64,000 nucleotides of DNA from positions 1,603 through 65,602 of the forward strand of contig JBBTSX010000009.1 of the NCBI GenBank assembly GCA_038064535.1, in the 5' to 3' direction. The position numbers were made by a program, and so were the translations under genes. The notes below the pieces were generated by a model, which was given only the letters and a program-made list of their open reading frames with translations, did no database searches and was not told where the DNA came from. Shown here one piece after another: positions 12,588 to 58,642 of the stretch. The number at the start of each line of letters is the position of its first letter. Position 1 is the stretch's first letter. The stretch is from Patescibacteria group bacterium (GTDB lineage Bacteria; Patescibacteriota; Minisyncoccia; Phycocordibacterales; UBA2100).

Positions 12588-12611
12588 ACGGGTAACTGAT
12601 TAGAAATACTA

Positions 12612-13097
12612 TTAATAACTCTTTTCATAGCGCCACTCGACAGTGTCGCCGGCATGAATGGTCGCGTTTGAGGCTCCGAGGTCGGAAGATTTCCCGTTGA
12701 TATACAAAATCCAATACGCTCCGTCGCCGTTCTTTTTGCCGTTGATTGATTCGACGAAGAACCCGAGCGACGGATATTCTTTTCCCGTAAATTTGAAGTC
12801 GGTCGTAGATGCGAGGCTACGCATGAGTGCGAGGACGCTCTCGTTTGACGCGATGTATGTGCCATATATCCGGTCGCCGGCCTTGAACGTAACGTTATTT
12901 GCGGGAGATGGTGCCGCGGAGGTCTGTGATATTGAGGCGGGTGCGTGTCGCGGGGCAGTCTGCGCCGGTTCGGTCGTTGTAGCGACGAGCGGAGTCGCCG
13001 CCGCGCCCCCCGGTTCTGTGTATCCGGTGCGGGACACGGCGAAAATCGCCGCGACCAGCATGATGAGTATTCCGATGGTGATGTAATTTCTTTTCAT
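12612..13097 (-). CDS. DUF4430-domain membrane-anchored protein
   Basis: N-terminal TM IGILIMLVAAIFAV, a low-complexity linker, then FFVESINGKKNGDGAYWILYINGKSSDLGASNATIHAGDTVEWRY, the DUF4430 signature. Confidence 0.7.
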   Translation of the reverse strand: MKRNYITIGILIMLVAAIFAVSRTGYTEPGGAAATPLVATTTEPAQTAPRHAPASISQTSAAPSPANNVTFKAGDRIYGTYIASNESVLALMRSLASTTDFKFTGKEYPSLGFFVESINGKKNGDGAYWILYINGKSSDLGASNATIHAGDTVEWRYEKSY

Positions 13098-13118: not shown

Positions 13119-14399
13119 CTATCGTAGCCCGCGCTTGATCGTCTCCTCGATAAGCATTCGCGGCCATCCGTAGGCGAGACGATTCAGCGTCACCACTTTG
13201 TCTTTCATTGGTCCCATTTCCGGTACCGATTCAGGCGGCAGGCTTGCGCCCGAAAATGGCGGACTCGTCTTCCCGTCAATCATGAGCTTGATGTAAAAAT
13301 TAAACCGCGGCAATCCCATGAAATCGGCCTCGGTTATCGGTGCGAACTCTTGGGCAAGAATCTTGGCGTCTTCCGCGCCAACCTCAAAAGAAACGAGAGT
13401 TCCGACATTGCCAAGGACGCTGTCACGGATCTCATCCGGCAACTGCGACAGGTATTGGTTAGTGAGGTGTACCCCTAGTCCGTATTTGCGCGATTCGCTG
13501 AGCAGGCTGATAAAAGTGTCGGTCGCGAAGTTCTGGAATTCGTCGACATAGAGGTAAAAGGGAGTCCGGTGTGTACTCTCTCGATTCGCGCGCTTGAGTA
13601 CCGCAACCTGTAATTTTGATATCAAGATCAACCCGAGCATATGCGCGTTCAGCTCACCGACCTTACCCTTCGACAGGTTCGCAAGCACAATGCTTTTGCC
13701 GTCCATGAGTGCGTCGAAGCTGAAGCTACTCGTGCGTTGACCCATGATGTTGCGCATCATCGCGTTGTTGAGAAACGGTCCGAATTTGGACATGAAGTAG
13801 TTGAGCATTTCGCTCTTGTGGAAGTCCGATGTTCTCGTCATTTGCTTGGCCCAGAAATCGATTACGAGCGGATCAGTCAGCTGCGCCCTCTTTTTCTTCT
13901 CGAATTCACGGTCAACGAACAGCCGCGGAATTTCCAGTATGTTCCCGCCGTCGGGCCCCGCCATGACCGTGAGCGCGGCATTGCGCAGCCAGTGCTCGAA
14001 TTGCGGGCCTATAACGCCGGTCTTTTTTGGGTCGAACAGTTTATAGAAGATCTGGATGCACTCGTTGACGAGGAAGTCTTTCTCAAATTCATCCCGCGCT
14101 TCCAGTATATTCAGTCCGAACGGGAACTCCGTATCACTCGGGTCAAAGAGTACAACATCTTTCAGTCGGTTGCTCGGGATGTGTTCCAAGAGCCAGTCGA
14201 TGGATTCTCCATGCGGATCGACGTAGCATACGCCGTGTCCATTCTTAATATCCTGCAGGCACATGTTCTGAAAGACGGTCGATTTTCCGACGCCAGTTTT
14301 CCCGATCATATACATGTGTCGCAGCCGGTCATCCGGCATATAACCGATGAGCTTTTTGCGGTCGCGCGTTTCGTGTACGCCTATATATACATTTGCCAT
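13119..14399 (-). CDS. VirD4/TraD/TrwB-like P-loop ATPase (type IV coupling-protein-like, FtsK-HerA superfamily). Soluble, with no N-terminal TM.
   Basis: Walker A MIGKTGVGKST and Walker B YLYVDEFQNF, with the TraG-D_C-like region. Paralog of 22425-24287. Confidence 0.65.
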   Translation of the reverse strand: MANVYIGVHETRDRKKLIGYMPDDRLRHMYMIGKTGVGKSTVFQNMCLQDIKNGHGVCYVDPHGESIDWLLEHIPSNRLKDVVLFDPSDTEFPFGLNILEARDEFEKDFLVNECIQIFYKLFDPKKTGVIGPQFEHWLRNAALTVMAGPDGGNILEIPRLFVDREFEKKKRAQLTDPLVIDFWAKQMTRTSDFHKSEMLNYFMSKFGPFLNNAMMRNIMGQRTSSFSFDALMDGKSIVLANLSKGKVGELNAHMLGLILISKLQVAVLKRANRESTHRTPFYLYVDEFQNFATDTFISLLSESRKYGLGVHLTNQYLSQLPDEIRDSVLGNVGTLVSFEVGAEDAKILAQEFAPITEADFMGLPRFNFYIKLMIDGKTSPPFSGASLPPESVPEMGPMKDKVVTLNRLAYGWPRMLIEETIKRGLR

Positions 14400-14403
14400 A
14401 GTG

Positions 14404-14724
14404 TTAAAAGATATCGGTGTCGAGCGGTTTTTTGACGAAATACTCGGTCTTGAGGGTCATGTGTAGTTTCTTGCGCGCATTCGCGGCCCGCGTCTCCGCT
14501 TCGATGTGTATCAGCAATACATCACGCTCGTACTGTATTTTCGTGCGGAGCGCTTCATAGAGGGGCGCACTGATGTCGGTTTCTAGAGAGGACAGCATTG
14601 TTTTGCGCAATTCGCACACCTCTTCCATCTGGATGTACGTCGGGTGCACCTCTGCCAATGTTTCCTGTGTCTCTTCACGAGAAGCAGTGCCCGGATAGCG
14701 TAGATGCTCGTTGGTTCGCGTCAT
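14404..14724 (-). CDS. Hypothetical 106-aa protein, translationally coupled to the upstream Clp ATPase gene (ATGA overlap)
   Basis: The track ORF spans 14404-14772. An internal Met at 14724 gives a 4-nt ATGA overlap with the stop of 14721-16385, and a 4-nt gap to the next gene. Confidence 0.5.
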   Translation of the reverse strand: MTRTNEHLRYPGTASREETQETLAEVHPTYIQMEEVCELRKTMLSSLETDISAPLYEALRTKIQYERDVLLIHIEAETRAANARKKLHMTLKTEYFVKKPLDTDIF

Positions 14725-16385
14725 ACAGAGGGAGAGTGTGTTAGCAATGACTGCGCGAGCAAGGTCTCGCACGTCTCTTCGATGAATCTCTTCACCGGCC
14801 GTGCCCCGAAACGCGGGTCCGATATGCGCTGCACCTGATCTTTCAGGACGCCGGGTTCGATCTCGAATTGCACACGGTGTTTTGCAAGCCGTCTTTCTAT
14901 TTTCTTGACCTCAAGCTGCGCAATCCGTATGAGGCTCGGTACGCCGAGCGGTTTGAATATCAGTATGCTGTCGAAGCGATTGAGGAATTCAAGGCGGAAT
15001 GTCTGCGCGAGGATGGGCATGATTTTCTCGGCGATGAACGATTCATCGTCGATATCACCGGCAGTGTAGGCCTCGAGAATGTGTGCGACGGCGACGTTCG
15101 AGGTCGCCATAATAATCGCATCGCGCGCGTCAACGGTATCGTTCTGTCCCGACGTCAGGCGTCCGTCGTCGAGCACCTGGAGAAAAATATCGAACACTTT
15201 TGGATGAGCTTTCTCTATTTCGTCGAGTAAGATAAGCGAGTGAGGCTCTTTGCGGAGTGCGTTGGTGAGCGCGCCGCCCTCTTCGTACCCGATATATCCG
15301 GCCGGCGCGCCGATGAGACGTTGTACAGTATGATCCTGCTGGAACTCCGACATATCAAAACGCATGAAGCGCTCGCTCGTACCGAACATAATCTCCGCGA
15401 CGCATTTCGCAGTTTCAGTCTTTCCGACACCGGATGGCCCGAGGAGGAGGAATGAGCCGAGCGGCCGGCGGGGGTCTCGTAGCCCGAGCTTCGCGCGCTG
15501 CAGACTTCGCGTGATTTTCGCGATTGCCGCCTCCTGACCGATCACGCGTTCGTTCAATTGCTGTTCGAGCGCACGTACGCCCTGCAGCTCATCTTCGCTC
15601 AGGCGCGCGCGCGGTACGCCTGTCTTGGCCTCGACGACGGTGGCGACCGTCTCATGCGAGAGTATTCTGCGGTTCGTCGAAGCAGAGAGTGAGATACTCT
15701 CATCGAGTAAGCGGATTGCCGAGCGCGGCAATTGGCCGAGCGTCGGGAATCGCTCCGCATACGCGACGATATCTTTCAGGATGTCCTCCGGGATGATGAT
15801 GCGGTGCCGGGCATTGAGCGTTGATACCGATGCGCGCGCAATGCGAACGCATTCGAACGATGTTTGATTCTTCAGGGCGATTGTCTCGAAGGCATTCAGG
15901 AACGAAGAGTGCTCTCGTTCGAGCCATGCGTGCTCATGGGGCGCGAGCGTGAGCACGACGTGTACGTCGGGTCGCCTCAGGATCTGCTTGTAGACACGAT
16001 GGATACGCTGCAAAAGCGGGCTGTTTTGATGCACCTCGTGACCAAAATCGTCGATGAAAAGAATGCACGGGGGAAGATGCGATAGTGCTTCTTGGAACCG
16101 ATCTTCAAGACCGCCGTTGTCATTGAGTGTGTGGAGATGTTCGACACTTATCTGGAGAAGTGCGAGCTGTTTGTTGCGCGCGCGGCTCGCCATGGCGCGC
16201 ATCCAGCCGTATACCATGGTGGACTTTCCGACACCGGCGGGCCCCACAATAACGGCATTGTTGCTGATGCGGCGATCGATCACGCGATCGAGTCGCGCCG
16301 TTTCGTCGCGCCGGCCGATGACGCGCGGGAGCCGACCCGCTACCTCGCGGAGGTCGTAGTATTCGATTTTTTCAGACATTTTCAT
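14721..16385 (-). CDS. Clp/Hsp100-family double AAA+ ATPase (ClpA/B/C-like D1 and D2), compact form lacking N- and M-domains
   Basis: D1 has Walker A GPAGVGKS and Walker B ILFIDDF (DD in place of DE). D2 has GPSGVGKTE, the pore loop RLIGAPAGYIGYEEGG and Walker B LILLDEIEKAH, typical of AAA_2. No IGF-type ClpP loop is obvious. Confidence 0.8.
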   Translation of the reverse strand: MKMSEKIEYYDLREVAGRLPRVIGRRDETARLDRVIDRRISNNAVIVGPAGVGKSTMVYGWMRAMASRARNKQLALLQISVEHLHTLNDNGGLEDRFQEALSHLPPCILFIDDFGHEVHQNSPLLQRIHRVYKQILRRPDVHVVLTLAPHEHAWLEREHSSFLNAFETIALKNQTSFECVRIARASVSTLNARHRIIIPEDILKDIVAYAERFPTLGQLPRSAIRLLDESISLSASTNRRILSHETVATVVEAKTGVPRARLSEDELQGVRALEQQLNERVIGQEAAIAKITRSLQRAKLGLRDPRRPLGSFLLLGPSGVGKTETAKCVAEIMFGTSERFMRFDMSEFQQDHTVQRLIGAPAGYIGYEEGGALTNALRKEPHSLILLDEIEKAHPKVFDIFLQVLDDGRLTSGQNDTVDARDAIIMATSNVAVAHILEAYTAGDIDDESFIAEKIMPILAQTFRLEFLNRFDSILIFKPLGVPSLIRIAQLEVKKIERRLAKHRVQFEIEPGVLKDQVQRISDPRFGARPVKRFIEETCETLLAQSLLTHSPSV

Positions 16386-16401
16386 ACTAAGAAGTCTTTA
16401 T

Positions 16402-18039
16402 TTACGCGGCCCGGCGGAGTGTAATACCATTGAGCTTGTGTGTCCGCTCCGCGCGAGTCGGGTCGCTATCGGTGTTTGGCGGTGGGGACGTGCGGAGCTT
16501 TGACAATGCTTCGGCATACCTGCGTTGGAGGAAAGGCGATACCGGCTGCTCTGCGGCCGCCACAATGCGCGGTCGTTCGACTCGCGGCTCCCGATCGCGC
16601 AGTACCTGTCGCAGAGGCGGTCCGGACTCTCGAGCGTCTGCGCGCGCGGGTTTCTCAGGCGTCTCGCGCACACTCGGGGCAGCTGTATCCGGAGTCGGTG
16701 CAGATTCGATCATGTCCTTGGGACCGTGTGGCCGTGCGTCGCGCTCCAATGGTTCGCTCTGCATATCTGACAGTGTGAGCAGTTCCTCTTTCAAGAATTG
16801 CTCGAGCGAAGCGATATGAACAATGGAGTCGTTGTGCGCCGGCTGCGCCAACTCGTGTATCTCCGATGTGAGGATGCCCGCCGCTTCTGATGTCGTCGGA
16901 GCAATGGACTCGACGCTGGTCGCGTCGATAGGCTCTTCACGTAGCGACTCCCGCGTGGCCGCGATATCAACAGCGAGGGTCTCGTCCGGCGTCCCGATAA
17001 CGGCAAAAAGATTTGCCTCGTGGAGCAGCTGGGTGACAGGCGACTCGGTGCGCTCACGTTGATATGGATCAATCGATGTTCGCTCGAGATTTTCGGAGTG
17101 ACGCCCAGACTCGATTTCTGTTGCCTTGTGGCGCGGCTCGTTTACGTGTTCGGGAACCGGGTGCCACTGTTCTGAGAATTGCGTTCGCACGTCTGAGAGG
17201 GTGGTGTGCTCCTGCGTTACAGACACGGGTGCCGCGACGCTCTCTCTGGAGGGCTCGTCTACGGATGTATGCAATATCCCATCTGACATATCGATTCCGG
17301 AGGCGTGCATGACGCCCGCTGCCTCGACACGGGACACATCGGTATGCAATGTCTCAGAAGTGCCGTTCGCCCCGCCCGTTGATTCTGCCGCTCGTGCGTA
17401 GGCGATTGCCGCGGCCTCTGCCGACAATGTGTCGTTCATGTGTTCTGTGGCTGGCTCTGGATGTTCTACAAAACGACCTCGTGTCTCTTGGTCGTGAGAA
17501 ACCTCGTGCTCGCGAGGCTCGATTTCCTCGGCTTTTCGCGGAACGAAAATCTCCCTGATCTCATACCGCACATTCTTGTCAGGGCCGAGTATAAGGACGG
17601 TGACGGATAGCCTTTCTCCGTCTGGCGTCGTTTCCTTGTGGTCGGGGAGCTGAAATATATGGTCCTTGTCTTGGTTTTCCTGCATCGCTTCGTTCCATTT
17701 CTGGACCATTTCCTGATGGACGAGCTCGTGCTCGGGGCTTCGTTCAACAGTGCCCCAATATGATTCCCCCGTTTGCGGATTAAATATCTCCTTGCCGTCA
17801 AAGACATACCCCTCGCCGCTGTATCGTAGTTCCCAATCCTCGGGCCTCGTACCGCCGATGTACTCGGTCAAGTGATGTGCAACCGGATCGATCGGGGCGG
17901 CCTCTTCCGACGGCCCGCTGTCGAACTGTGGTTGCGGGGTAGCCTCCGCATACGCAGGGGCCGGTTCGTATTCATCGTGCACTTCGAAATCACCGAGTTG
18001 CTCCTCGGTCTCGATAAATTCGTCGGTCTCTGTCGACAT
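16402..18039 (-). CDS. Hypothetical 545-aa highly acidic, low-complexity protein
   Basis: Long, strongly E/D-rich ORF on the coding strand of the operon, 16 nt upstream of the Clp ATPase gene. No recognizable catalytic motifs. Confidence 0.5.
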   Translation of the reverse strand: MSTETDEFIETEEQLGDFEVHDEYEPAPAYAEATPQPQFDSGPSEEAAPIDPVAHHLTEYIGGTRPEDWELRYSGEGYVFDGKEIFNPQTGESYWGTVERSPEHELVHQEMVQKWNEAMQENQDKDHIFQLPDHKETTPDGERLSVTVLILGPDKNVRYEIREIFVPRKAEEIEPREHEVSHDQETRGRFVEHPEPATEHMNDTLSAEAAAIAYARAAESTGGANGTSETLHTDVSRVEAAGVMHASGIDMSDGILHTSVDEPSRESVAAPVSVTQEHTTLSDVRTQFSEQWHPVPEHVNEPRHKATEIESGRHSENLERTSIDPYQRERTESPVTQLLHEANLFAVIGTPDETLAVDIAATRESLREEPIDATSVESIAPTTSEAAGILTSEIHELAQPAHNDSIVHIASLEQFLKEELLTLSDMQSEPLERDARPHGPKDMIESAPTPDTAAPSVRETPEKPARADARESGPPLRQVLRDREPRVERPRIVAAAEQPVSPFLQRRYAEALSKLRTSPPPNTDSDPTRAERTHKLNGITLRRAA

Positions 18040-21199: not shown

Positions 21200-21234
21200 T
21201 TTTTCATTGAGGTCAAATTGAAATCAAAAAGAGA

Positions 21235-21272
21235 GTACACTATAACAGGCCGACCGGCCTGTTATAGTGTAC
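21235..21272. repeat. 38-nt palindromic element, copy 1 (GTACACTATAACAGGCCG-AC-CGGCCTGTTATAGTGTAC)
   Basis: Near-perfect 16-bp arms. Each arm contains a TGTTATAGT-like extended -10 box facing outward. Related copies lie at 46950-46987 and 47551-47588. Confidence 0.7.
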
Positions 21273-21289
21273 TTATAAGGAGACGGTCT

Positions 21290-21364: not shown

Positions 21365-22075
21365 ATGAGCGAAGTTTCGGACTATCCCCACGGCAGACTC
21401 TCTATTGTGGCTACGCCTATCGGCAATCTCGGCGATATGACGTTCCGGGGGCTCTGGACGCTCAAGGAGTGCACGGCTATTTATGCAGAGGATACGCGCG
21501 TGATTTCAAAACTCCTCACACACTACGGACTTCGTACGCCGGTTTTCCGCCTCGATGCGGCGACTGAGACGAAGAAAGCGGGGGAAGTAGTCGAGCGGCT
21601 TGAGCGCGGTGAGCACATTTCATACGTCTCGGACGCGGGTACACCGGGGATTTCCGACCCCGGTGCACGGCTTGTTGCCTATGTCCGTAAGCACCTACCG
21701 GAAGCGACAATAGAGGCGCTACCGGGCCCCTCATCGGTCGCGGCGGCTCTTTCGATTGCAGGAATTTCCGGCGATGCATTTACATTCCTCGGATTCTTGC
21801 CGCACAAAAAGGGCCGGCAGACCGCGCTCAAGAAAATCGCGGCGAGCGAATTTCCTGTCGTGCTTTTCGAATCCCCACACCGCATCATTAAGCTGATGGG
21901 GGAGTTAGAAGTTGCCGCACCGAAATGCAAAGTCACTATTGGGCGGGAACTGACGAAAATGCATGAAGAAGTGGTTGTGGGCTCGCCAAAAGAAGTTGCA
22001 GAAAGTCTTGAAAAAAGAAAAGCCGTCCGCGGCGAATTCGTCGTCATAATTCAGCCACTAGCCACTAGCCACTAG
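21365..22075 (+). CDS. rsmI: 16S rRNA (cytidine1402-2'-O)-methyltransferase
   Basis: IVATPIGNLGDMT, AEDTR, VSDAGTPGISDPG, LPGPSS, GFLP and RELTK are colinear with E. coli RsmI (tetrapyrrole-methylase fold). Confidence 0.88.
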   Translation: MSEVSDYPHGRLSIVATPIGNLGDMTFRGLWTLKECTAIYAEDTRVISKLLTHYGLRTPVFRLDAATETKKAGEVVERLERGEHISYVSDAGTPGISDPGARLVAYVRKHLPEATIEALPGPSSVAAALSIAGISGDAFTFLGFLPHKKGRQTALKKIAASEFPVVLFESPHRIIKLMGELEVAAPKCKVTIGRELTKMHEEVVVGSPKEVAESLEKRKAVRGEFVVIIQPLATSH

Positions 22076-22140: not shown

Positions 22141-22383
22141 ATGACACTCGACGCACTCATTATGCTCTCCGGCGGATTCGTGGCCGTACTGCCGTTCCTC
22201 GGGTTCCCCAACAGTTGGGACAGCGTCTTTTTCTTCCTCGCGGGGGTACTCATCATCGGACTCGGTATCGTGGTGCGCCGCCGCGGTCTCGGCCTTGATG
22301 AAGACAAACGAAGAGAACTGCACGATAGAGAGCAAGACTTCCGCACGCCGCAGACTCCTGATACGACCGAGGGAGGGCTCTAA
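22141..22383 (+). CDS. Small (80 aa) membrane protein with two predicted TM helices
   Basis: LIMLSGGFVAVLPFLGF and VFFFLAGVLIIGLGIVV. AAGGA lies 9 nt upstream of the ATG. Confidence 0.45.
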   Translation: MTLDALIMLSGGFVAVLPFLGFPNSWDSVFFFLAGVLIIGLGIVVRRRGLGLDEDKRRELHDREQDFRTPQTPDTTEGGL

Positions 22384-22424
22384 CGGGAGCTACCACGCTC
22401 TCCGTGAAGCGGTATACTGCTCGT

Positions 22425-24287
22425 ATGCACGCCGATCATAAGGACGATGATCGTCGCATTACCTATTTTGCGGCGACACACACGCGCGGCAAGCGTGAGA
22501 TGTTTGGCATTCGCGCGATAGACCGAGGCAAGCACGTATATGTCATCGGCAAGACCGGCATGGGCAAATCGACCATGCTGGAAAATATGGCCATTCAGGA
22601 CATCCAGAACGGGGAAGGCATCTCGTTCATAGACCCGCACGGCTCGACCGCCGAAAAGCTGCTCGACTTCATCCCGCAGGACCGCATCAAAGACGTCGTC
22701 TACTTTGCACCGTTTGATACGGACCACCCCATCGGTTTCAATGTGATGGAGGACGTGGGCTTCGATAAACGCCACCTCGTCGTCTCCGGTCTCATGGGCG
22801 CACTGCGCCGCATTTGGGTGGACGCGTGGAGCGCGAGAATGGAATATATTTTGCAGAACACTTTGCTCGCACTCCTCGAGTATCCCGGTTCGACACTGCT
22901 CGACGTGAACCGCATGCTCACCAACAAGACATTCAGGAACACCGTCATCGAAAAAATAAGCGACCCCATCGTGAAGTCGTTCTGGACCGAAGAGTTCGCC
23001 GGATTCACCGACACATACACGCGCGAGGCGACGCCGGCCATTCAGAACAAAATCGGCCAATTCACCGCCAATCCGCTCATTCGCAACATCGTGGGGCAGG
23101 CGACCTCGTCGTTCGACCTACGCAAAATAATGGACGAGAAGAAAATATTCATCGTCAATCTCTCCAAGGGCCGCATGGGCGAAACGAATGCGTCGCTCCT
23201 CGGCTCGATGCTTACGGTCAAAATTTACCTCGCTGCGATGTCGCGCGCCGACGAGCCGGCCGCGCGCATGGCGAAATTGCCGCGCCACTATTTCTACGTC
23301 GACGAGTTCCAGTCGATGATGAACGAAGCGTTCGCCGATATTCTCTCCGAGTCACGCAAGTATAAACTCGCGCTCACGCTCGCCAACCAGTACATCGAGC
23401 AGATGGAAGAGGAGGTCCGCGACGCCGTGTTCGGCAACATCGGAACGCTCATCGTGTTTCGCGTCGGCCCGTTTGACGCCGAAGTGCTGGAGACCGTATT
23501 CGACCCCACGTTCACGCCTGAAGACCTTGTGGGCTTAGGCATCGGACAGATATATCTCACACTCATGATTGACGGCGTGGGTTCCCCGCCCTTTTCGGCT
23601 GAAACCATTCCGCCAATCGAAGTGCCCGCCATTTCGTATCGCAACGACGTCATTACAAATTCACGGGAGGCATTCGGCAGAGCACGTGCGGACGTGGAAG
23701 CGGCTATCGGCAAAAAACAGACAGATTTCGTCGCACCGCCGCGCGAAAAGAAAGAGCGTAGCGGCAGCACGTACGGAACGCGTCCGCGCTCGCCTGTCGC
23801 GCCCGCGCACACAGGGCAGGCGGGCGATGAAGCGCCCCGGCCCCTTCCGCCCCGCGCTCCCGATACTGCGTCTGCACTCGCCCGTCCGGAGGCGCGTCCT
23901 CCCGTCCCGCGCGTCGTGAGTGAGGCGGTACAACGCAACACACTCCGTGACGCCATAGAAAAAGCAAAAACCGAGGGCGTCGCAAAATCCTCGGGTGCGC
24001 CGGTTCGTTCACCGGCGGATATTCTCCGCGAAAAGCAGGGTAATCGTTCCGCGCCCAAGCCTCCAGCGCCGCCGCACCATAATCCGAAACACGCTCCGCA
24101 TCAGGCGCCGCGTCCGTCCGAGCAGCGCGACCCCCGCAAAAGCCACGCGCAACCCGTCTCGCCCGATGAGCGAGCGAGTCGAGGCGGGCCTCAGCACGCA
24201 GGAAGCGATTCGCACGACGGGGAAGTGTCCCCGCACGTACTGCAGCAGGTCATCAACGGCTCTAAACGGGACACAGACGACCTATAA
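22425..24287 (+). CDS. VirD4/TraD-like P-loop ATPase paralog with a ~200-aa Pro/Arg/Ala-rich disordered C-terminal tail
   Basis: VIGKTGMGKSTML and Walker B YFYVDEFQSM. About 50% identical to 13119-14399 over the ATPase core. The track starts at GTG 22404. ATG 22425 is preceded by TATACT at 22413-22418. Confidence 0.65.
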   Translation: MHADHKDDDRRITYFAATHTRGKREMFGIRAIDRGKHVYVIGKTGMGKSTMLENMAIQDIQNGEGISFIDPHGSTAEKLLDFIPQDRIKDVVYFAPFDTDHPIGFNVMEDVGFDKRHLVVSGLMGALRRIWVDAWSARMEYILQNTLLALLEYPGSTLLDVNRMLTNKTFRNTVIEKISDPIVKSFWTEEFAGFTDTYTREATPAIQNKIGQFTANPLIRNIVGQATSSFDLRKIMDEKKIFIVNLSKGRMGETNASLLGSMLTVKIYLAAMSRADEPAARMAKLPRHYFYVDEFQSMMNEAFADILSESRKYKLALTLANQYIEQMEEEVRDAVFGNIGTLIVFRVGPFDAEVLETVFDPTFTPEDLVGLGIGQIYLTLMIDGVGSPPFSAETIPPIEVPAISYRNDVITNSREAFGRARADVEAAIGKKQTDFVAPPREKKERSGSTYGTRPRSPVAPAHTGQAGDEAPRPLPPRAPDTASALARPEARPPVPRVVSEAVQRNTLRDAIEKAKTEGVAKSSGAPVRSPADILREKQGNRSAPKPPAPPHHNPKHAPHQAPRPSEQRDPRKSHAQPVSPDERASRGGPQHAGSDSHDGEVSPHVLQQVINGSKRDTDDL

Positions 24288-24363
24288 ACTCGGACTTTAC
24301 AAAATCCACATTATTTCCAACAATTCGGCTCTTTGTGCCAAGTTGTGAGGGATAATGGTCTTC

Positions 24364-25752
24364 ATGAAGACTTGGGTCGGGAGGTCAGGCCTCCTTTTCG
24401 TTTTGTTTTTCATCGTACCGCATGCGGTATCGGCGCAGGTAGCAAACGTTGTCTTTACGAGTGATGCACAAACTGTCCCAACGGATACGGTATCAAGTAC
24501 GCTGACTATTCAAACGCAAGATTCGACGGCCGGAAGCGTTTCGTTGCCGCAAACGGGCTGTCTGCAGTTGGAAACAACTTCCGCGAGCGGACAGTTTTCT
24601 TCGAGCGCGACTGGCTGGAATCCCGTGACGGTTTTGACCATGAACAAGAATACGGCCAATAAGAATTTTTACTACAAAGATGCGGCGGCGGGCACGTATA
24701 CGATAAAAGTCAGCCTTGCGCTGAAGCCGGAGACCGTAAGCGCCTCGTGTACTAACTGGCCGACATCGGGGTGGAATACAGAATGGTCCGCGACACAAAC
24801 CATCACTATTGGCGGCGGGCAAACAAACACAAGTACACAAGCGCAGGCAACATCGACTGATACGTCCGCAGGCACGTCATCGACCAACACAGCTCCGGCG
24901 CCCGCGCCCGTCTCTTCGTATGTCGCGCCGCCGGTACCACAGCTGTTTGCAGACGCGGGCGGTGACCGCACTGTCATCGTGGGCGCCGACACGCAATTCA
25001 ACGGCCGTGCATACAACCGGCAGAAGGAAAATGTCGAGCACGTCCGCTTCCTCTGGAATTTCGGTGACGGCTCCACCGCGGACGGCCCCACTGTCGTACA
25101 TCATTATGCATATCCCGGGCGCTATGCGGTGATGCTCACCATCGCTCAAAATCTTGACGCGGTTTCCGACCGCATCGTTGTGACGGCCGAGCCGGCCAAG
25201 CTCGCCTTTGACGTACCGTCCGACGGGAGTGTCGCCATAGAAAATCACGCGGGACGCGACCTCGACCTTTCGGGCTGGATAGTCCGTTCGACCGGTCAGC
25301 TATTCACCTTGCCGGAAGGTTCGGTCATTCTCAGCAATGAAACGATGCGCATCCCGCAGAAGACGCTGAAGTTCTGGAGCGGGACGCAAACGGAACTCGA
25401 TTACCCGAACGGCGTCGTCGTTCTGAGAGCAAATGAAAGTTCGGGAATGGTGGTTCCCGCTCCGGTTTCAGCTCCCTCGCCATCGCCGGTGCCATCCGTC
25501 GCTCCTGTCGCGCGTGCGCAAGCCGCTCCTAGCGGGAAGCCGGCGCAGGAAGACCTTCCTGAGGAAATTACTGCCGAAACCGCGCCGACTGCTTCACCGG
25601 AGGGGCAAACCGCGGCCGCGGCTGCTGCAGTTTCGTCAAACGGCATGTACTGGTGGTTGGGCGCACTCGCGCTCTCTGCACTTGCGGGAGGGGCTGTGTT
25701 TGTCGTCCGCCGCATCAAGGCGGGCGAGTGGGATATCGTTGAGGAAACATAA
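24364..25752 (+). CDS. Secreted surface protein with PKD domain, lamin-tail domain (LTD) and C-terminal TM anchor
   Basis: Signal MKTWVGRSGLLFVLFFIVPHAVSA. PKD motif FLWNFGDGSTADGPTVVHHYAYPGRYAVMLT. LTD-like VAIENHAGRDLDLSGWIVRS. C-terminus WWLGALALSALAGGAVFVV. Confidence 0.65.
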   Translation: MKTWVGRSGLLFVLFFIVPHAVSAQVANVVFTSDAQTVPTDTVSSTLTIQTQDSTAGSVSLPQTGCLQLETTSASGQFSSSATGWNPVTVLTMNKNTANKNFYYKDAAAGTYTIKVSLALKPETVSASCTNWPTSGWNTEWSATQTITIGGGQTNTSTQAQATSTDTSAGTSSTNTAPAPAPVSSYVAPPVPQLFADAGGDRTVIVGADTQFNGRAYNRQKENVEHVRFLWNFGDGSTADGPTVVHHYAYPGRYAVMLTIAQNLDAVSDRIVVTAEPAKLAFDVPSDGSVAIENHAGRDLDLSGWIVRSTGQLFTLPEGSVILSNETMRIPQKTLKFWSGTQTELDYPNGVVVLRANESSGMVVPAPVSAPSPSPVPSVAPVARAQAAPSGKPAQEDLPEEITAETAPTASPEGQTAAAAAAVSSNGMYWWLGALALSALAGGAVFVVRRIKAGEWDIVEET

Positions 25753-25773: not shown

Positions 25774-27252
25774 ATGTCTGCTGAACAGAAGACGATACTC
25801 GTGACCGGCGGTGCCGGATTTATCGGTTCGAGGCTTTGCGCCCGGCTCGTACAAGAGGGTCACCGTGTTATCTCGTTGGATAATTACTTCGCGGGCTCGC
25901 GTGCAAATCACGTCGATGGCGTGGAGTATCGCGAAGGACACACCAAAGACATTGCGCTGTATGTGCCCGAGCATGTCGACCGTATCTACCATCTCGGCGA
26001 ATACGCCCGGGTGGAGCAGAGCATGCTGGAGCCTGATACGGTCCATGACCTCAATGTCATCGGTACAGAGGGGGTGCTGGCGTATTGGCGTGAGAGGAAG
26101 TGCAAACTCGTATATGCGGGGTCATCCACAAAGTTCGGCGACGGCGGGCTTGCGCGCGAAAAAACACCGTATGCATCGACCAAGGCGGCCAATACGGAGA
26201 AAGTAAAAGCACTCGGTGATGCGGAAAAGTTGCCGTATGCAATCACATACTTTTACAACGTGTACGGGCCGGGTGAACGGGCGGGTGTGTACGGAACGGT
26301 CATAGAAGCGTTCAAGCAGATGTATTTGCACGGCTCTCCGATTACCGTGACATCGCCCGGCACACAGCTGCGCAACTTCACCCACGTGGATGACATCGTT
26401 GATGCACTGGTACTCGTCGGGGAGAAGGGTGAGGGCGACGAGTACGGCATCGGCAATGAGCGGGCATATACGGTACTCGACGTCGCGAAACTTTTCCTGC
26501 CTGCGCAGGCAGGCGGCGGCGAAATCATCATGCTGCCGCCGCGCGCGGGTAATCGCATGCAATCGGGACTCGACGTGAATAAGACGCGAAACCTCGGATG
26601 GGTACCGAAGCGCAGTCTAGACGGATATATCGGAGAGTTCGTGCGCTCGCATCCGCGCGGCGTGTTGCGCGAGAAGCGCGTGCTCGTGTTCTCAACGACT
26701 TTTTACCCGGTGCAGGGTCCCGCCGAAGAGACGCTCGTCGAGCTCATGCGTCAGATGCCGGGCGTACAATTCGATATCATCACGACCGCGTTCTCACCGG
26801 AAGGGAGTGTGACGGTGTCCCCGCTTCCGAATGCGCACCTCTATCGCGTCGGCTCGGGTCGCACCGGCGACAAGTATGTACTGCCGGTCTTCGGATTTTG
26901 GGCCGCATATAAATTGCACCGGAAGCACCGGTATCTGTTCGCCTGGTCGCTTATGGCGAGCTATGCGGCGCTTGCCGGTATCTTGCTCAAATACAGTTCG
27001 TCGCTGCCGCTCCTCATCACGCTCGCAGATCAAAAATTGGACGAGGTCGCGCCGTTGGTGCGTTTTGCGCTCAGGCACATTCTTTCCAGCGCAGATCAGG
27101 TGTACGGCGCGAGCCCGGCGCAGGAAAAGCATGCGACGCGGCTGGCTTCCGGAAAATCACTTCGTCATTCAATCGGGGAGGGTGACGCCTTTGCAAACCA
27201 GCTACGCTACGCCTATGCCGAAATATTATTGAATCGCACACCGTCAGTATGA
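25774..27252 (+). CDS. Fusion protein: NAD-dependent sugar epimerase/dehydratase (SDR) plus a glycosyltransferase family 4 N-terminal-half domain
   Basis: N-terminus ILVTGGAGFIGSRL with YASTKAANTEK (YxxxK). The C-terminal ~180 aa (VLVFSTTFYPVQGPAEE...) aligns to the N-terminal domain of the downstream GT4 (ILIFSLAYFPKHVGGAEV...). Confidence 0.7.
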   Translation: MSAEQKTILVTGGAGFIGSRLCARLVQEGHRVISLDNYFAGSRANHVDGVEYREGHTKDIALYVPEHVDRIYHLGEYARVEQSMLEPDTVHDLNVIGTEGVLAYWRERKCKLVYAGSSTKFGDGGLAREKTPYASTKAANTEKVKALGDAEKLPYAITYFYNVYGPGERAGVYGTVIEAFKQMYLHGSPITVTSPGTQLRNFTHVDDIVDALVLVGEKGEGDEYGIGNERAYTVLDVAKLFLPAQAGGGEIIMLPPRAGNRMQSGLDVNKTRNLGWVPKRSLDGYIGEFVRSHPRGVLREKRVLVFSTTFYPVQGPAEETLVELMRQMPGVQFDIITTAFSPEGSVTVSPLPNAHLYRVGSGRTGDKYVLPVFGFWAAYKLHRKHRYLFAWSLMASYAALAGILLKYSSSLPLLITLADQKLDEVAPLVRFALRHILSSADQVYGASPAQEKHATRLASGKSLRHSIGEGDAFANQLRYAYAEILLNRTPSV

Positions 27253-28730: not shown

Positions 28731-28759
28731 GACGAGCTGCTAATTCGGTTGGAGGTAAC

Positions 28760-28790
28760 GGGACGCGCCGCTCGCGTCCTGTTTCTCTTT
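28760..28790 (+). terminator. Rho-independent terminator candidate
   Basis: GGGACGCG-ccgct-CGCGTCCT forms an 8-bp GC-rich stem, followed by GTTTCTCTTT. Confidence 0.6.
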
Positions 28791-30936: not shown

Positions 30937-31515
30937 CTACAAGAGGTTGAAGTGTTTTTTAATCCACGCATCATGTTCGATACTTTCAACGACCACATAC
31001 AATACGTCTTTCCCGATGCGCAGATCCGCTTTGATGAGCGCTATGAGTTCTTCGCAGTCATACGGATATACCCACACACTGTTTTGTAGTCGCAGGAAAC
31101 CATATTCGCGCATGAGTCTCCTCAATCGGTCACGTGTACTCCTCCGGTACTGAGGCACATCAAACATGACGAGCCGGTATCGCTTATCCCATCGCGGCGC
31201 GCGCCTGTGTCGGTGTAAGGCCTTTGCTGTTTCAAGTATGAGCGCGCGCCTACCTTTTTCTGTGATTGTGGCGTAGCGGATTCCGCCACGCTCGACGAAA
31301 CGCAGAAGACCCTTCTTGGCGAGTCGTCCCGAAGCCGTTCTTGCCCGATACCCGAGCTTGTATTTGTCGCCCATGATACGGGGGAGTACTCGAAAGATAT
31401 TCGGAGCGATCATGGTGACGGCGAGAATACCCGCGATGCCAACAGCTCCGAGTACGGCGCTTTGTATGTTCCGTTTCCTCCTGCGCATTCGCGCTTCCGA
31501 TTCTACCAGCCCCAT
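30937..31515 (-). CDS. PaaX-like transcriptional regulator (N-terminal wHTH-like region plus PaaX_C/Cas2-like C-terminal domain)
   Basis: C-domain DKRYRLVMFDVPQYRRSTRDRLRRLMREYGFLRLQNSVWVYP matches the W-DGRW...D(I/V)PE...LQ.SVW pattern. Paralog of 46977-47546. The track start at 31656 is an N-terminal over-extension; the homologous start MGLVESE is at 31515. Confidence 0.6.
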   Translation of the reverse strand: MGLVESEARMRRRKRNIQSAVLGAVGIAGILAVTMIAPNIFRVLPRIMGDKYKLGYRARTASGRLAKKGLLRFVERGGIRYATITEKGRRALILETAKALHRHRRAPRWDKRYRLVMFDVPQYRRSTRDRLRRLMREYGFLRLQNSVWVYPYDCEELIALIKADLRIGKDVLYVVVESIEHDAWIKKHFNLL

Positions 31516-31554
31516 ATCCCTAATGGTACACCATGGCGCAGAGATAGGGATATG
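31513..31554. promoter_or_regulatory. 10-bp inverted repeat CATATCCCTA-N22-TAGGGATATG at the PaaX-like start, in the divergent promoter region
   Basis: Perfect IR arms at 31513-31522 and 31545-31554. Confidence 0.35.
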
Positions 31555-31624
31555 GGCGGATGGGAGATGGTACGGAGCGTGTGTTCTTGCAGGAATCGGG
31601 AAAAGCGGCAATAATGCGCGCACC

Positions 31625-32542
31625 ATGGGACATAAAGCTGGGAACACGGCACTCATCGGATTCGTCGGTCAGGGATTTATCGGCAAGAGCTACGCCGATG
31701 ACTTGGAAAAACGCGGTTATGCGGTTGTGCGATATTCACTCGAAGAGCCGTACAGAGCAAATAAGCACAAGATAGCGGAGTGCGGCATTGTCTTTATCGC
31801 CGTGCCCACGCCGACGACGCCGAAAGGATTTGATTACTCGATCATCCGCGGTTCGCTCGGGCTCGTAAAGCCGGGAGCAAGTGTCGTAATCAAATCTACG
31901 TTACTGCCGGGGACGACCGTCGTACTGCAAAAAGCATTTCCGAAACTCTTCATTATGCATTCGCCGGAATTTCTCGTCGCGAGAAATGCACGCGCCGACG
32001 CGAGTAAGCCGTCCCGCAATATCATCGGTATTCCGAAAAAGTCGGCCTCCTATACCAAACGTGCGCGGGAGATTTTGAAAATTCTACCGAAGGCACCGTT
32101 TGCGCTGGTGTGTTCCTCCGAAGAGGCCGAGATCATCAAGTATGCCGGCAATGCGATGCTGTATCTCAAAGTGCTGTTCGCCAACATGCTCTACGACACG
32201 GCGCGCGGGGCGGGGGCTGATTACGAGGTTATACGGGCCGCCATCGGGGCAGACCCCCGCATTGGGCCGTCGCACCTGCAGGTCGTCCATGACAGCGGGC
32301 ACAAAGGCGCCAAGAAAGGCCGCGGTGCAGGCGGACTGTGCTTCATCAAGGATGTCGCAGCGTTCACAGATTTTTACAGCGCACTCACGGGTGACGAGTA
32401 CGGAGAGGCTTGGTTCAGGGCGGCAATGCGCATGAACGCGAATCTTCTGACGAGCACCGGTAAGGATCTCGACTTACTCCAAGGGGTGCACGGCAAATCG
32501 TTCGTGACGCGGTTTCGTAAGAAGAAACACACAAAAAGATGA
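31625..32542 (+). CDS. UDP-glucose/GDP-mannose dehydrogenase family protein (short form)
   Basis: N-terminal Rossmann ALIGFVGQGFIGKS, IAVPTP, KSTLLPGTT, catalytic Cys in GAGGLCFIKDV. The first in-frame start after the divergent PaaX-like start is ATG 31625. Confidence 0.75.
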   Translation: MGHKAGNTALIGFVGQGFIGKSYADDLEKRGYAVVRYSLEEPYRANKHKIAECGIVFIAVPTPTTPKGFDYSIIRGSLGLVKPGASVVIKSTLLPGTTVVLQKAFPKLFIMHSPEFLVARNARADASKPSRNIIGIPKKSASYTKRAREILKILPKAPFALVCSSEEAEIIKYAGNAMLYLKVLFANMLYDTARGAGADYEVIRAAIGADPRIGPSHLQVVHDSGHKGAKKGRGAGGLCFIKDVAAFTDFYSALTGDEYGEAWFRAAMRMNANLLTSTGKDLDLLQGVHGKSFVTRFRKKKHTKR

Positions 32543-38378: not shown

Positions 38379-38425
38379 GATGTGGGATTGAAAGAATATT
38401 TAACCGGGCAATAACTCATGACACA

Positions 38426-38998: not shown

Positions 38999-39039
38999 TG
39001 TTTCTTGCAAGGGATGTTTTCTATAGTAAGATACCTCGA

Positions 39040-40302: not shown

Positions 40303-40334
40303 GGTACAGGTATAGGCCGAAACTATCATACCAG

Positions 40335-41390: not shown

Positions 41391-41399
41391 AAAAATGTC

Positions 41400-58621: not shown

Positions 58622-58642
58622 ATACACTTCATACTTGATTGC

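Follow-up and report, generated by a model that had tools for sequence, protein, structure and literature searches.

ATPase2, a soluble P-loop ATPase encoded on a Kaiserbacteria-like (Paceibacteria, CPR) chromosome, is tentatively read here as the soluble part of a monoderm-type coupling ATPase that is split in two, working with a surface receptor for DNA or another polymer. We consider this reading possible rather than probable. It draws on the coupling-protein-type core of ATPase2, a recurring linkage to an anchored surface protein, and a membrane protein, DUF8128, that adjoins the ATPase in related lineages. The window (the whole stretch of DNA analyzed, 64 kb) contains the following features around ATPase2, and the gene calls and coordinates initially assigned to the 22141-25752 region hold.

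21234-21273, upstream of rsmI: bidirectional terminator-like hairpin, 18-bp stem (terminator scan)
21365..22075, + strand: rsmI-like TP_methylase gene (Pfam)
22141..22383, + strand: small two-TM protein, 80 aa, two hydrophobic helices (hydropathy; conserved rsmI neighbor)
22404..24287, + strand: ATPase2, soluble VirD4/VirB4-C-domain-type P-loop ATPase, 627 aa (core aa 1-444, predicted disordered tail aa 445-627)
22548..22574, + strand: Walker A of ATPase2, GKTGMGKST, aa 49-57 (alignment A1)
23289..23312, + strand: Walker B of ATPase2, YFYVDEFQ, aa 296-303 (alignment A1)
23736..24284, + strand: Pro/Ala/Arg-rich tail, 183 aa, aa 445-627 (composition, pLDDT, alignment)
23934-23978, + strand: tail helix motif, aa 511-525, restricted mainly to the Kaiserbacteria-type clade
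24003-24041, + strand: tail helix motif, aa 534-546, restricted mainly to the Kaiserbacteria-type clade
24219..24260, + strand: conserved C-terminal helix motif GEVSPHVLQQVING (clade alignment)
24355..25752, + strand: Sec-exported, C-terminally anchored surface protein, 465 aa (Pfam, hydropathy, family alignment A6), with a signal peptide (aa 1-28) and an N-terminal domain without family match (about aa 29-160) followed by a Ser/Thr linker
24949-25185, + strand: PKD of the surface protein, aa 199-277 (Pfam, 52 bits)
25228-25416, + strand: weak LTD-like region of the surface protein, aa 292-354 (Pfam, 17.4 bits against a threshold of 34.3, E 0.006)
25648-25716, + strand: TM of the surface protein, about aa 432-454 (hydropathy)
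25723-25749, + strand: cytoplasmic tail of the surface protein, GEWDIVEET
28757-28783, + strand: next strong terminator-like site (terminator scan)

A soluble, coupling-protein-type ATPase with a disordered tail

ATPase2, for which the ATG at 22425 is the more likely start, as in its orthologs, matches the Pfam models TrwB_AAD_bind (29.9 bits, gathering cut-off 20.5), T4SS-DNA_transf (26.9 bits, cut-off 20.1) and TraG-D_C (22.1 bits, cut-off 22). Across both clades of the family (alignment A1), eight of the nine Walker A residues are invariant, M53 being variable, as are Y298, D300, E301, F302 and Q303 of Walker B. TraD/TrwB models describe the protein better than VirB4/TrwK does (E 7.8e-12 vs 6.8e-4 for VirB4_CagE), yet the relationship to known coupling proteins is remote: a PDB profile search matches only the P-loop of TrwB (E 0.004), and scores against NCBIfam TraD models fall far under their cut-offs (44 vs 366 bits). 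Unlike TrwB (R388), TraD (F) and VirD4 (Ti), which have an N-terminal TM domain, neither ATPase2 nor its paralog ATPase1 shows a transmembrane segment (maximum 19-residue Kyte-Doolittle windows of 1.47 and 1.60), as had been proposed at the outset. ATPase2 also differs from canonical type IV coupling proteins (T4CPs) in being chromosomal, highly conserved and not on a mobile element, with no relaxase or T4SS genes nearby.

The roughly 200-aa Pro/Arg/Ala-rich tail of the initial annotation corresponds to 183 residues (P 16%, A 12%, R 11%), predicted by AF2 to be disordered, with pLDDT <50 outside predicted helices at 510-524, 537-546 and 610-617. Its C-terminal motif has the consensus [G/K]-E-[V/I]-[S/P]-x-[E/D]-x-L-[R/Q/K]-[K/R]-[V/I/L]-L, with E in 85% and L in 89% of 105 ATPase2-clade sequences. 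Present in most of the tailed clade, with or without a surface partner, this motif is replaced where DUF8128 adjoins the ATPase.

Two old paralog clades

ATPase2 had been described as an approximately 50% identical paralog of the ATPase at 13119-14399; paralogy is evident, but BLASTP identity is 38% (59% positives over 424 aa, E 8e-105). Each paralog has at least 8000 homologs, and the top 120 in either set share 66-100% identity. A neighbor-joining tree separates them into two clean clades, one tailed (530-805 aa total length, the disordered tail always present) and the other tail-less, and on sequence grounds ATPase1 and ATPase2 represent two old, strongly conserved Paceibacteria clades. ATPase1 closes a conserved operon of its own:

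13119..14399, - strand: ATPase1, tail-less paralog, 426 aa
14404-14772 (likely start 14724), - strand: small protein, conserved upstream partner of ATPase1
14721-16385, - strand: ClpB-like double AAA+ protein, conserved upstream partner of ATPase1 (Pfam)
16402-18039, - strand: acidic low-complexity protein, 545 aa, C-terminus ...NGITLRRAA, conserved upstream partner of ATPase1

Of 68 loci, 56 have the small protein directly 5' of ATPase1, and the ClpB-like gene is found upstream in 53 of 58; DUF4430 genes beside ATPase1 are not conserved neighbors across relatives' loci.

A role for ATPase2 in anti-phage defence, as kin of MADS mad8, DndH/DptH or HerA, is extremely improbable. The neighborhood contains no further mad, dnd or dpt genes, and the mad8 model is generic because it also matches the unrelated ClpB-like AAA+ protein. 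Moreover, ATPase2 is a core chromosomal gene, its best 120 homologs sharing 66-96% identity and its housekeeping context stable, unlike patchy defence islands.

Recurring linkage to an anchored surface protein

Recurrence of the ATPase-PKD/LTD gene pair, which the initial annotation had named as its own check, was observed in 35 of 72 species-level loci, where a member of the surface-protein family lies directly 3' of ATPase2 on the same strand. Gaps range from -19 to +132 bp in 26 of the 35; in 8 further loci the surface ORF, called from its earliest candidate start codon, overlaps the 3' end of ATPase2. Outside these positions the family is nearly absent from sampled DNA: control loci totaling 785 kb contain no member, and 1.09 Mb yields one weak, non-adjacent match. 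In this part of the window, intergenic gaps are 20, 67 and 21 nt; ATPase2 and the surface protein are probably co-transcribed, and the rsmI-like gene is possibly the first of the operon.

That this adjacency is inherited gene order without functional coupling, ATPase2 acting independently of the surface protein, carries a low probability. ATPase2 lacks a surface partner in roughly half of its loci, where the next gene encodes a glycosyltransferase or PGK, which also counts against our preferred reading; the C-terminal motif of ATPase2 is kept irrespective of partner; and more than 15 kb of synteny persists in the three close relatives examined. The arrangement of the whole region could even be a product of gene order decaying slowly in small genomes, again to the detriment of the preferred reading. 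However, flanking genes vary, and the pair persists as they change both upstream (DUF8128, DUF4015, an L,D-transpeptidase (Ldt)/PBP5-like gene, the small TM gene) and downstream (epimerase, GT4, a YvcK-like gene, opposite-strand genes), with short or overlapping gaps, an invariable strand and almost no family members elsewhere in the 1.9 Mb sampled.

The small two-TM protein, by comparison, flanks ATPase2 as first described, but its partnership does not stand: the gene stays by rsmI where DUF4015 or other genes part it from ATPase2 (e.g., L003, L012, L038) and is absent from DUF8128-linked lineages. It is probably not a specific partner.

The same neighborhood bears on a quite improbable alternative, in which ATPase2 is a translocase co-opted for envelope growth or cell division, an FtsK in reverse with a motor, a flexible linker and a C-terminal peptide tethered to a divisome or membrane protein. 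ATPase2 follows murD, murC and rsmI in the window and many relatives. DUF4015, a membrane-anchored putative glycosidase, is encoded upstream of ATPase2 in 34 of 62 loci, and other flanks include an L,D-transpeptidase/PBP5-like gene, genes that are MurI-like and YvcK-like by sequence, and glycosyltransferases. The core of ATPase2 is extremely conserved. FtsZ carries a C-terminal peptide, D-I-P-x-F-L-R-K, which the motif E-V-P-E-x-x-L-R-K of ATPase2 resembles. This resemblance is short, however, and the mur context is lineage-specific: in early-branching lineages ATPase2 instead follows SecA, SecDF, a HARE-HTH gene and DUF8128, and precedes PGK. Exaptation of T4CP homologues is raised as a possibility in PMC12102498.

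The surface protein as a candidate polymer receptor

The surface protein was first described as a secreted PKD plus LTD protein with a C-terminal anchor. Its signal peptide, PKD and C-terminal TM (also placed at aa 433-452) are clear; the LTD is sub-threshold here, while the family as a whole matches LTD (E<=0.001) and PKD in 26 of 27 members each. The typical family layout comprises a tip LTD or ComEA-type HhH, a PKD, an LTD, a TM and a short cytoplasmic tail, about half of the family carrying a tail motif (W/F)-x-I-(I/V)-E-E. The suggestion that the protein binds an extracellular polymer gains sequence support from five relatives with ComEA-type HHH_3 domains, four of them (L009, L017, L026, L020) found with Pfam above the gathering score (E 1e-12 to 3e-21) and L013 detected only by an HMM built from these four. 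The domain takes the place of the tip LTD in four of the five; the exception, L020, is short and lacks both PKD and LTD.

Several observations count against a DNA receptor. HhH variants are a minority of partners (5 of 35), and the window's own protein has neither tip LTD nor HhH, its remaining LTD being below threshold. A DNA-binding role of bacterial LTDs is not established; ExeM without its LTD shows residual activity in vitro and near wild-type DNA clearance in vivo (PMC6085458).

DUF8128 and plasmid relatives

The ATPases had been called orphans, with no VirB/Trb partners in 64 kb. Among the 54 window ORFs covered by our Pfam scan, we indeed found no VirB/Trb, pilus or ComEC families, and a Walker A motif is absent from the 13 other ORFs of at least 150 aa and from four scanned ORFs without match. 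Two polytopic membrane ORFs inside a glycan cluster, 54967-56901 (Pfam-scanned, no match) and 58607-60112 (unscanned), may be VirB6-like. DUF8128, T4SS, relaxase, ComEC/ComEA, DprA and nuclease genes were found neither in the window nor among recurrent neighbors, which counts against the preferred reading. Orphan status nevertheless holds within the 64-kb window only and is doubtful beyond it, as the tailed clade appears to have its own membrane partner elsewhere in Kaiserbacteria-like genomes. This putative partner, suggested by relatives, is DUF8128, which combines a long N-terminal hydrophobic segment with a VirB4 N-terminal-domain fold. DUF8128 lies directly 5' of ATPase2 in early-branching lineages (9 genome loci and all 3 metagenome places examined); two Kaiserbacteria-like contigs (L090, L091) carry it, in these genomes not next to ATPase2.

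Homologs occur in 684 plasmid records. In WP_213380696.1, the 913-aa 'DUF87 domain-containing protein' of B. subtilis plasmid NRS6107_2 (NZ_OX419568.1), a DUF8128-like N-terminus (E 3.9e-9) is fused to an ATPase1/2-like region (E 7.6e-46); similar proteins are found on Bacillus, Streptomyces, haloarchaeal and Sulfolobus plasmids. It shares the ATPase core with ATPase2, and also has a DUF8128-like N-terminal region with an EEL..FP motif, a C-terminal low-complexity tail and no TM. Its gene adjoins a replication-relaxation-family-annotated gene, TcpC, TcpE and AAA_10 genes, and holds the T4CP position beside the relaxase-family-annotated gene, on a plasmid typed as non-mobilizable by MOB-suite despite its conjugation-type genes. 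Whereas the plasmid protein is a single polypeptide, the Paceibacteria version consists of two genes, unlinked in Kaiserbacteria-like genomes, and its ATPase lies on the chromosome, has split by duplication into two clades and is linked to a surface-protein gene rather than to a relaxase-family gene.

A possible route across the envelope

Under the split coupling ATPase reading, ATPase2 would be the soluble motor half of a system of the kind used in monoderm conjugation, and DUF8128 its membrane half. ATPase2, a hexamer by analogy, would dock at the membrane on DUF8128, perhaps at the type IV secretion system that Patescibacteria encode elsewhere, with its C-terminal helix as a tethered docking peptide. 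It would then power the passage of a substrate bound by the surface protein, an extracellular polymer and most likely DNA. DNA transport, and uptake in particular, is what we infer for the locus, and the near-absence of relaxases from Patescibacteria favors import over export. The broad design, an extracellular DNA-binding receptor combined with a membrane-associated translocation ATPase, recalls ComEA/ComEC, the H. pylori ComB T4SS and archaeal Ced, through the HHH_3 domains of five partner proteins for ComEA and weak NCBIfam CedD matches (E 2e-4 and 4e-7) for Ced. Unlike these machines, the locus has no ComEC channel, pilus or CedA-like gene, and ComB, to our knowledge, works without a T4CP; DNA import by the present locus is a putative function.

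T4CPs also deliver proteins, which counts against a DNA substrate, and PrgB is an eDNA-binding adhesin in a T4SS context. Since such adhesins are known, extracellular DNA binding need not imply DNA transport. ATPase2 could be a conventional substrate receptor of the patescibacterial T4SS (virB4, virB3, virB6, virB8 and pilins elsewhere) that delivers proteins, with the PKD/LTD protein expressed alongside it for adhesion or host contact, in the manner of Gram-positive conjugation adhesins. We regard this as unlikely, though well short of negligible. It fits the T4CP-family fold and Pfam matches and the ClpB-like unfoldase of the ATPase1 operon, which would suit protein handling, and no PrgB-type adhesin was found in Patescibacteria, which leaves an adhesin role open. 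According to Quinonero-Coronel et al. 2025 (PMC12102498), 2,417 of 3,035 patescibacterial assemblies (80%) encode VirB4, as a full-length separate protein near dnaA, with T4CP genes usually far from virB4, a further reason to doubt orphan status; relaxases are nearly absent, and protein export has been suggested for this T4SS. Conversely, T4CP homologues occur in more assemblies than VirB4 (5,713 in 2,918 genomes, about two each), only 148 of them near virB4; the surface partner has ComEA-type DNA-binding variants; and the closest plasmid relatives adjoin a relaxase-family-annotated gene. The S. epibionticum homologue was not found essential, while the T4SS itself is; DNA uptake there proceeds via ComEC (PMC12102498, PMC12857230), which also weighs against the split coupling ATPase reading.

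The T4CP homologues of that study are very probably the same proteins, the window holding one of each paralog, so that their number and distance from virB4 were already known. The main text of the study makes no mention of transmembrane segments, and we did not find the two-clade split, tail motif, DUF8128, ClpB-like operon or PKD/LTD partner described in the sections available. New here are the DUF8128 partner, the conserved tail helix motif, the surface-protein linkage and the small gene that tracks rsmI. A nucleotide-acquisition route, as yet unidentified, has been proposed for Patescibacteria (PMC12102498), and the ATPase2 locus offers a hint at how these very small cells, reportedly without nucleotide synthesis, could transport DNA through their envelope.

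An anchorless ATPase of the VirB4/VirD4 branch

ATPase2, the tailed P-loop ATPase of the window, is encoded by a 627-aa ORF (22404-24287, plus strand), for which orthologs use the ATG at 22425 as start. Its VirB4/VirD4-fold nucleotide-binding domain, with Walker A and B motifs, scored above the Pfam cut-offs for TrwB_AAD_bind (29.9 bits, cut-off 20.5) and T4SS-DNA_transf (26.9 bits, cut-off 20.1), and above gathering for TraG-D_C. Scores against NCBIfam TraD/VirD4-like models were far under their cut-offs (44 vs 366, 35 vs 250, and 33 vs 648 bits), as was that against TIGR00929 (18 vs 643 bits). The sole match in a search of PDB sequences was the TrwB P-loop (E 0.004 with a profile), and kinship to solved T4CPs, judged by sequence, is remote. 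The AF2 model comprises a RecA-like domain (core pLDDT mostly 80-97) with an all-alpha insert between Walker A and Walker B (aa 123-244; pLDDT mostly 82-97, with one 10-residue block at 67).

Fold comparison of ATPase2 with known P-loop ATPases (comparison values)
VirB4 C-domain, 18.6
DptH, 18.4
TrwB, 18.0
DotL, 17.4
Cagbeta, 15.7
HerA, 12.9
EccC, about 8
FtsK, 7.3

Because of these values, which fall from the VirB4 C-domain down to FtsK, we place ATPase2 in the VirB4/VirD4 branch, an answer at the superfamily level to the phylogenetic check proposed in the initial annotation. Whereas VirB4 holds an N-terminal domain and a C-terminal ATPase domain in one polypeptide, ATPase2 corresponds to the C-domain-like part only. 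ATPase2 lacks any hydrophobic segment (maximum Kyte-Doolittle 19-residue window 1.47), so the N-terminal transmembrane (TM) anchor typical of T4CPs is absent, and its N-terminus lies only about 40 residues ahead of Walker A.

Two other readings of the motor were weighed. ATPase2 might be an FtsK analogue, or carry an FtsZ-peptide mimic; FtsK does appear in the fold comparison, at its lowest value, and ATPase2 does not have the FtsK/SpoIIIE motor fold with its gamma DNA-recognition domain. We give this reading a low probability. A role in anti-phage defence (MADS, Dnd/Dpt, or HerA-based) was rejected, as it drew on generic ATPase matches only and the neighbours are housekeeping and glycan genes. 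The PADLOC model mad8 (MADS) matched ATPase2 (E 2e-16) and ATPase1, its tail-less paralog (E 1e-12); since an unrelated ClpB-like protein was also matched, mad8 acts here as a generic P-loop detector. The N-terminal HAS-barrel of HerA and its usual pairing with NurA or another effector are likewise not found for ATPase2.

The Pro/Arg/Ala-rich tail described from the sequence was recovered as the final 183 residues (Pro 16%, Ala 12%, Arg 11%), predicted by AF2 to be disordered save for helices at 510-524, 537-546, and 610-617. Tails of the ATPase2 clade differ in length and sequence and keep a C-terminal motif, [G/K]-E-[V/I]-[S/P]-x-[E/D]-x-L-[R/Q/K]-[K/R]-[V/I/L]-L, which coincides with predicted helix 610-617 (C-terminal peptide of ATPase2, GEVSPHVLQQVING). 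Across 105 sequences, its E is conserved in 85% and its L in 89%. Two more tail helix motifs occur mainly in Kaiserbacteria-type sequences. The C-terminal motif is retained with or without the surface-protein neighbour described below, which makes a universal component, rather than the PKD/LTD protein, its probable target.

Two paralogous ATPase clades

The paralogy of ATPase2 and ATPase1 was borne out (E 8e-105), at a lower core identity than the roughly 50% first proposed (38% over 424 residues). The closest ATPase2 homologs are Candidatus Kaiserbacteria/Paceibacterota proteins (96%, 91%, and 88% identity). For each paralog the databases contain at least 8000 homologs, and the best 120 in each case share 66-100% identity. 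A neighbour-joining tree of 97 sequences split cleanly into two clades, namely the ATPase1 clade (including 13119-14399), tail-less and of about 426 aa, and the ATPase2 clade (including 22404-24287), in which every member carries a C-terminal extension (total 530-805 aa). Within each clade the cores are very alike, and both clades conserve Walker A (GKTGMGKST) and Walker B (YVDEF) (alignment A1).

This finding agrees with published counts. A phylum-wide survey of 3,035 patescibacterial assemblies reports 5,713 VirD4-type homologues, spread over 2,918 of the assemblies and with only 148 of the homologues near virB4; VirB4 was present in 2,417 of the assemblies, relaxases in just 103 (PMC12102498). 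T4CP homologues in Patescibacteria are therefore already known, and the ATPase family itself is already published. The same sources leave exaptation of these homologues possible because the homologue of S. epibionticum is dispensable and its T4SS essential (PMC12102498; PMC10633639). Our analysis assigns the roughly two T4CP homologues of each genome to two distinct systems, with ATPase1 coupled to a ClpB-like unfoldase.

The evidence for the ATPase1 system comes from 80 metagenome loci. A small protein of about 104-122 aa precedes ATPase1 in 56/68 loci and a ClpB-like double AAA+ protein in 53/58, usually together with an acidic low-complexity protein of 490-1020 aa. This operon is complete in the window:

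13119-18039, minus strand: four-gene ATPase1 operon (acidic protein, ClpB-like protein, small protein of about 106-122 aa, ATPase1)

The C-terminus of the acidic protein is nearly always -AA in relatives, often ...NGITL(K/R)xAA, and the window protein (545 aa, low-complexity) ends ...NGITLRRAA. By analogy, this ending resembles an ssrA-like tag, and the Clp-like unfoldase may therefore recognize the acidic protein. Two secreted DUF4430 proteins also lie next to ATPase1 (10968-13097, minus strand), the larger of them C-terminally anchored and with a repeat region of the prenyltransferase/cyclase-like kind. These DUF4430 and cyclase-like proteins were considered as ATPase1 partners and set aside, as they are not conserved neighbours.

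The ATPase2 gene and its neighbours

The ATPase2 gene lies in a stretch running from rsmI to a GT4 gene:

21234-21273: strong terminator-like hairpin bounding the putative operon (consensus-based scan)
21365-22075, plus strand: rsmI
22141-22383, plus strand: small two-TM gene
22404-24287, plus strand: ATPase2
24355-25752, plus strand: surface-protein gene
25774-27252, plus strand: epimerase ORF
28757-28783: strong terminator-like hairpin bounding the putative operon (consensus-based scan)

The hairpin at 21234-21273, between murC and rsmI, has a perfect 18-bp stem with a T-run on the minus strand, and from its sequence looks like a bidirectional terminator. The scan found no strong terminator-like hairpin between rsmI and the GT4 gene; the sole other plus-strand site is a weak 7-bp-stem hairpin (24379-24395) within the first part of the surface-protein gene. 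Gaps between genes in this stretch measure 20, 67, and 21 nt, which, with the lack of a strong terminator in these consensus-based scans, fits co-transcription. The epimerase ORF (492 aa) has a weak glycosyltransferase-like C-terminal part (aa 330-457). In orthologs the epimerase has about 290 aa, and a separate gene of about 217 aa comes next; the window ORF is either a gene fusion or a frameshift/assembly artefact.

As proposed from the sequence, VirB/Trb partners were not found: a Pfam scan of 54 window ORFs yielded no such family and no pilus or competence family either, and no Walker A motif occurs in window ORFs outside that scan. Other window content includes murD, murC, rsmI, an EPSP-synthase-family gene, a purT-like gene, and a large glycan-biosynthesis cluster. 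Two genes with a PaaX_M/Cas2-like central domain (30937-31656 and 46977-47546, both minus strand) lie inside this cluster, reversed relative to the genes around them. GC content is 0.46-0.48 at about 38000-42000, vs about 0.55 elsewhere in the window; this low-GC stretch encodes a dTDP-sugar epimerase, a C-methyltransferase, and a DegT aminotransferase, and was perhaps acquired horizontally as a sugar-modification cassette.

We compared ATPase2 neighbourhoods across 80 loci of GTDB species representatives (48-90% identity), clustering their ORFs and building HMMs for recurrent neighbours. Relaxase and mating-pair-formation genes were found neither in the 64-kb window nor among recurrent neighbours in 76 ATPase2 loci. 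The small two-TM protein noted as flanking ATPase2 is indeed present (80 aa, two hydrophobic helices), but a specific partnership did not hold, since the gene tracks rsmI. As a candidate for the missing anchor of ATPase2 it was rejected, because it stays with rsmI across intervening genes and is absent from basal lineages. A membrane-anchored DUF4015 protein, a putative glycosyl hydrolase (PF13200, E 1e-91), lies upstream of ATPase2 on the same strand in 34/62 loci (including L003 and L016) and is absent from the rest of the sample. Neither the window nor its closest relatives have it, this subclade having lost DUF4015 at that position. Five loci have instead a fused L,D-transpeptidase/PBP5-like protein directly upstream of ATPase2. 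By analogy, either neighbour could have a VirB1-like wall-opening role.

A linked family of surface proteins

Downstream of ATPase2 in the window lies the gene for a 465-aa protein that combines a signal peptide with a PKD domain and a C-terminal TM segment. PKD models scored well above cut-off (PKD_4, 52.1 bits, cut-off 27; PKD, 40.3 bits, cut-off 23.5), and the LTD match was sub-threshold (17.4 vs 34.3 bits gathering). Of the secreted PKD plus LTD protein with a C-terminal anchor initially described, the secretion signal, PKD domain, and anchor thus stand and the LTD is weaker than stated; the N-terminal LTD is missing and a different, unassigned domain occupies that end. Orthologs do exceed the LTD gathering score (77 bits in L001, 88 bits in L051), and LTD was detected at E <= 0.001 in 26/27 family members, as was PKD. 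Family members run from a signal peptide through LTD, Ser/Thr linker, PKD, weak second LTD, and linker to the TM segment; in about half of them a short cytoplasmic tail follows, bearing a (W/F)-x-I-(I/V)-E-E motif (GEWDIVEET in the window protein).

In four relatives (L009, L013, L017, and L026), a ComEA-type HHH_3 domain stands in place of the tip LTD, and in L020 a short HHH_3-plus-TM protein occupies the surface-protein position. Pfam matches were above gathering (E 1e-12 to 3e-21) in L009, L017 (from Kaiserbacteria chromosome OY969413.1), L026, and L020, and the L013 domain was found only with an HMM built from these four. Neither Pfam nor an HMM built from relatives detected HHH_3 in the window protein.

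Members of this family lie directly downstream of ATPase2 in 35/72 loci, always on the same strand, with gaps of -19 to +132 bp in 26 of the 35, while the genes flanking the pair vary. The linkage between an ATPase and a PKD/LTD gene seen in the window therefore recurs in relatives. No family member was found in 785 kb of ATPase1 loci, and a single weak, non-adjacent match in 1.09 Mb.

A candidate membrane partner and its plasmid relatives

In early-branching lineages (L070, L073, L075, and L077-L083), the gene directly upstream of the ATPase encodes a membrane protein of about 430 aa, DUF8128 (PF26449 by precomputed label; 2,584 cluster representatives). The ATPase C-terminus in these lineages is mostly (I/F)-L-K-P-G-x-x-(I/V)-(K/R)-F instead of the ATPase2 motif. 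Three further contigs (L164-L166) have the gene order SecA, SecD, SecF, HARE-HTH, DUF8128, ATPase, PGK, and their ATPases bear a precomputed zf_Tbcl_2 label at the C-terminus. A Sigma70_r4/HARE-HTH gene always precedes DUF8128. The window has no DUF8128 gene, and in two Kaiserbacteria-like contigs (L090, L091) it lies between HARE-HTH and MltG-like genes with no adjacent ATPase.

DUF8128 proteins had no match in Pfam/NCBIfam model scans or among PDB sequences, and we found no mention of them in the literature. Their predicted fold matches VirB4/TrwK only, presumably in the N-terminal domain. In relatives, the VirB4 N-domain-like fold is predicted for a separate protein, DUF8128, and is not part of ATPase2.

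No DUF8128-ATPase fusion occurs among the best 150 of the 2,584 cluster representatives, all <=551 aa. One was obtained from a tblastn search of plasmids, in which 684 records carried ATPase-core homologs (362 from Bacillus, 121 from Streptomyces, plus haloarchaea and Sulfolobus). Bacillus subtilis plasmid NRS6107_2 (NZ_OX419568.1; L168) encodes a TM-less 913-aa homolog (5948-8689) whose N-terminal region matches the DUF8128 profile (E 3.9e-9), C-terminal EEL..FP motif included, and whose middle region matches the ATPase profile (E 7.6e-46), with an acidic tail behind it. The gene after this one carries the annotation replication-relaxation family, and then come TcpC, TcpE, and an AAA_10 ATPase, which we take to be VirB8-like, VirB3-like, and VirB4-like, respectively. 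The fused Bacillus homolog is thus associated with annotated relaxase-family and mating-pair genes. It takes the place of the coupling protein in a Tcp/ICEBs1-like conjugation cluster, on a plasmid typed as non-mobilizable by MOB-suite. This fusion ties DUF8128 to the ATPase and places the family at the coupling-protein position of monoderm conjugation.

Possible function and significance

ATPase2 has the fold and motifs of a translocation ATPase and no anchor of its own, and its gene is specifically and recurrently linked to those of DUF8128, DUF4015, and the LTD/HhH-PKD surface protein. DUF8128 would dock ATPase2 at the membrane, and it is likely that the two work there together. That the surface protein is a functional partner of ATPase2 is, on balance, the reading we favour. 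This protein would bind an extracellular polymer. DNA heads the candidates, given the ComEA-type variants and the presence of LTDs in extracellular nucleases (PMC6085458). DNA as the substrate of the module is a tentative possibility. The module would then move DNA, probably inward, a direction favoured because relaxases are almost absent; overall, import is doubtful. The DNA-uptake or surface-display role initially suggested is supported in part, through the gene linkage, with DNA transport as a conjecture.

The main rival is that ATPase2 is an ordinary T4SS substrate receptor for proteins and the surface protein an adhesin. The ComEA-type variants speak against this rival. For the essential patescibacterial T4SS no substrate is known, and the experimental S. 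epibionticum study describes no recognisable coupling protein for it. Combining all steps, a Paceibacteria T4SS-derived DNA-import machine, in which an LTD/ComEA-tip receptor captures host or environmental DNA and a split motor of DUF8128 and tailed ATPase pulls it through the single membrane, is a speculative and, as a whole, rather unlikely proposal. Such a machine would parallel the Ced system of archaea and the ComB system of H. pylori while being independent of both.

To judge by our searches, three features are apparently new, namely the split architecture in which the partner is VirB4-N-domain-like, the conserved motif of the tail, and the specific linkage to a surface protein with DNA-binding variants. 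Several parts are testable, including a Paceibacteria-wide soluble motor, a candidate dock (DUF8128), a tail peptide usable as pull-down bait, and a surface family with DNA-binding variants. That ATPase1 and ATPase2 are distinct is also relevant to the divergence of coupling ATPases and VirB4 in the conjugation systems of monoderms and archaea. Nucleotide synthesis is reportedly absent from Patescibacteria, and the survey authors state that another route of nucleotide acquisition must exist (PMC12102498). If true, the import machine would be a major route of both nucleotide and gene acquisition in bacteria unable to make nucleotides.
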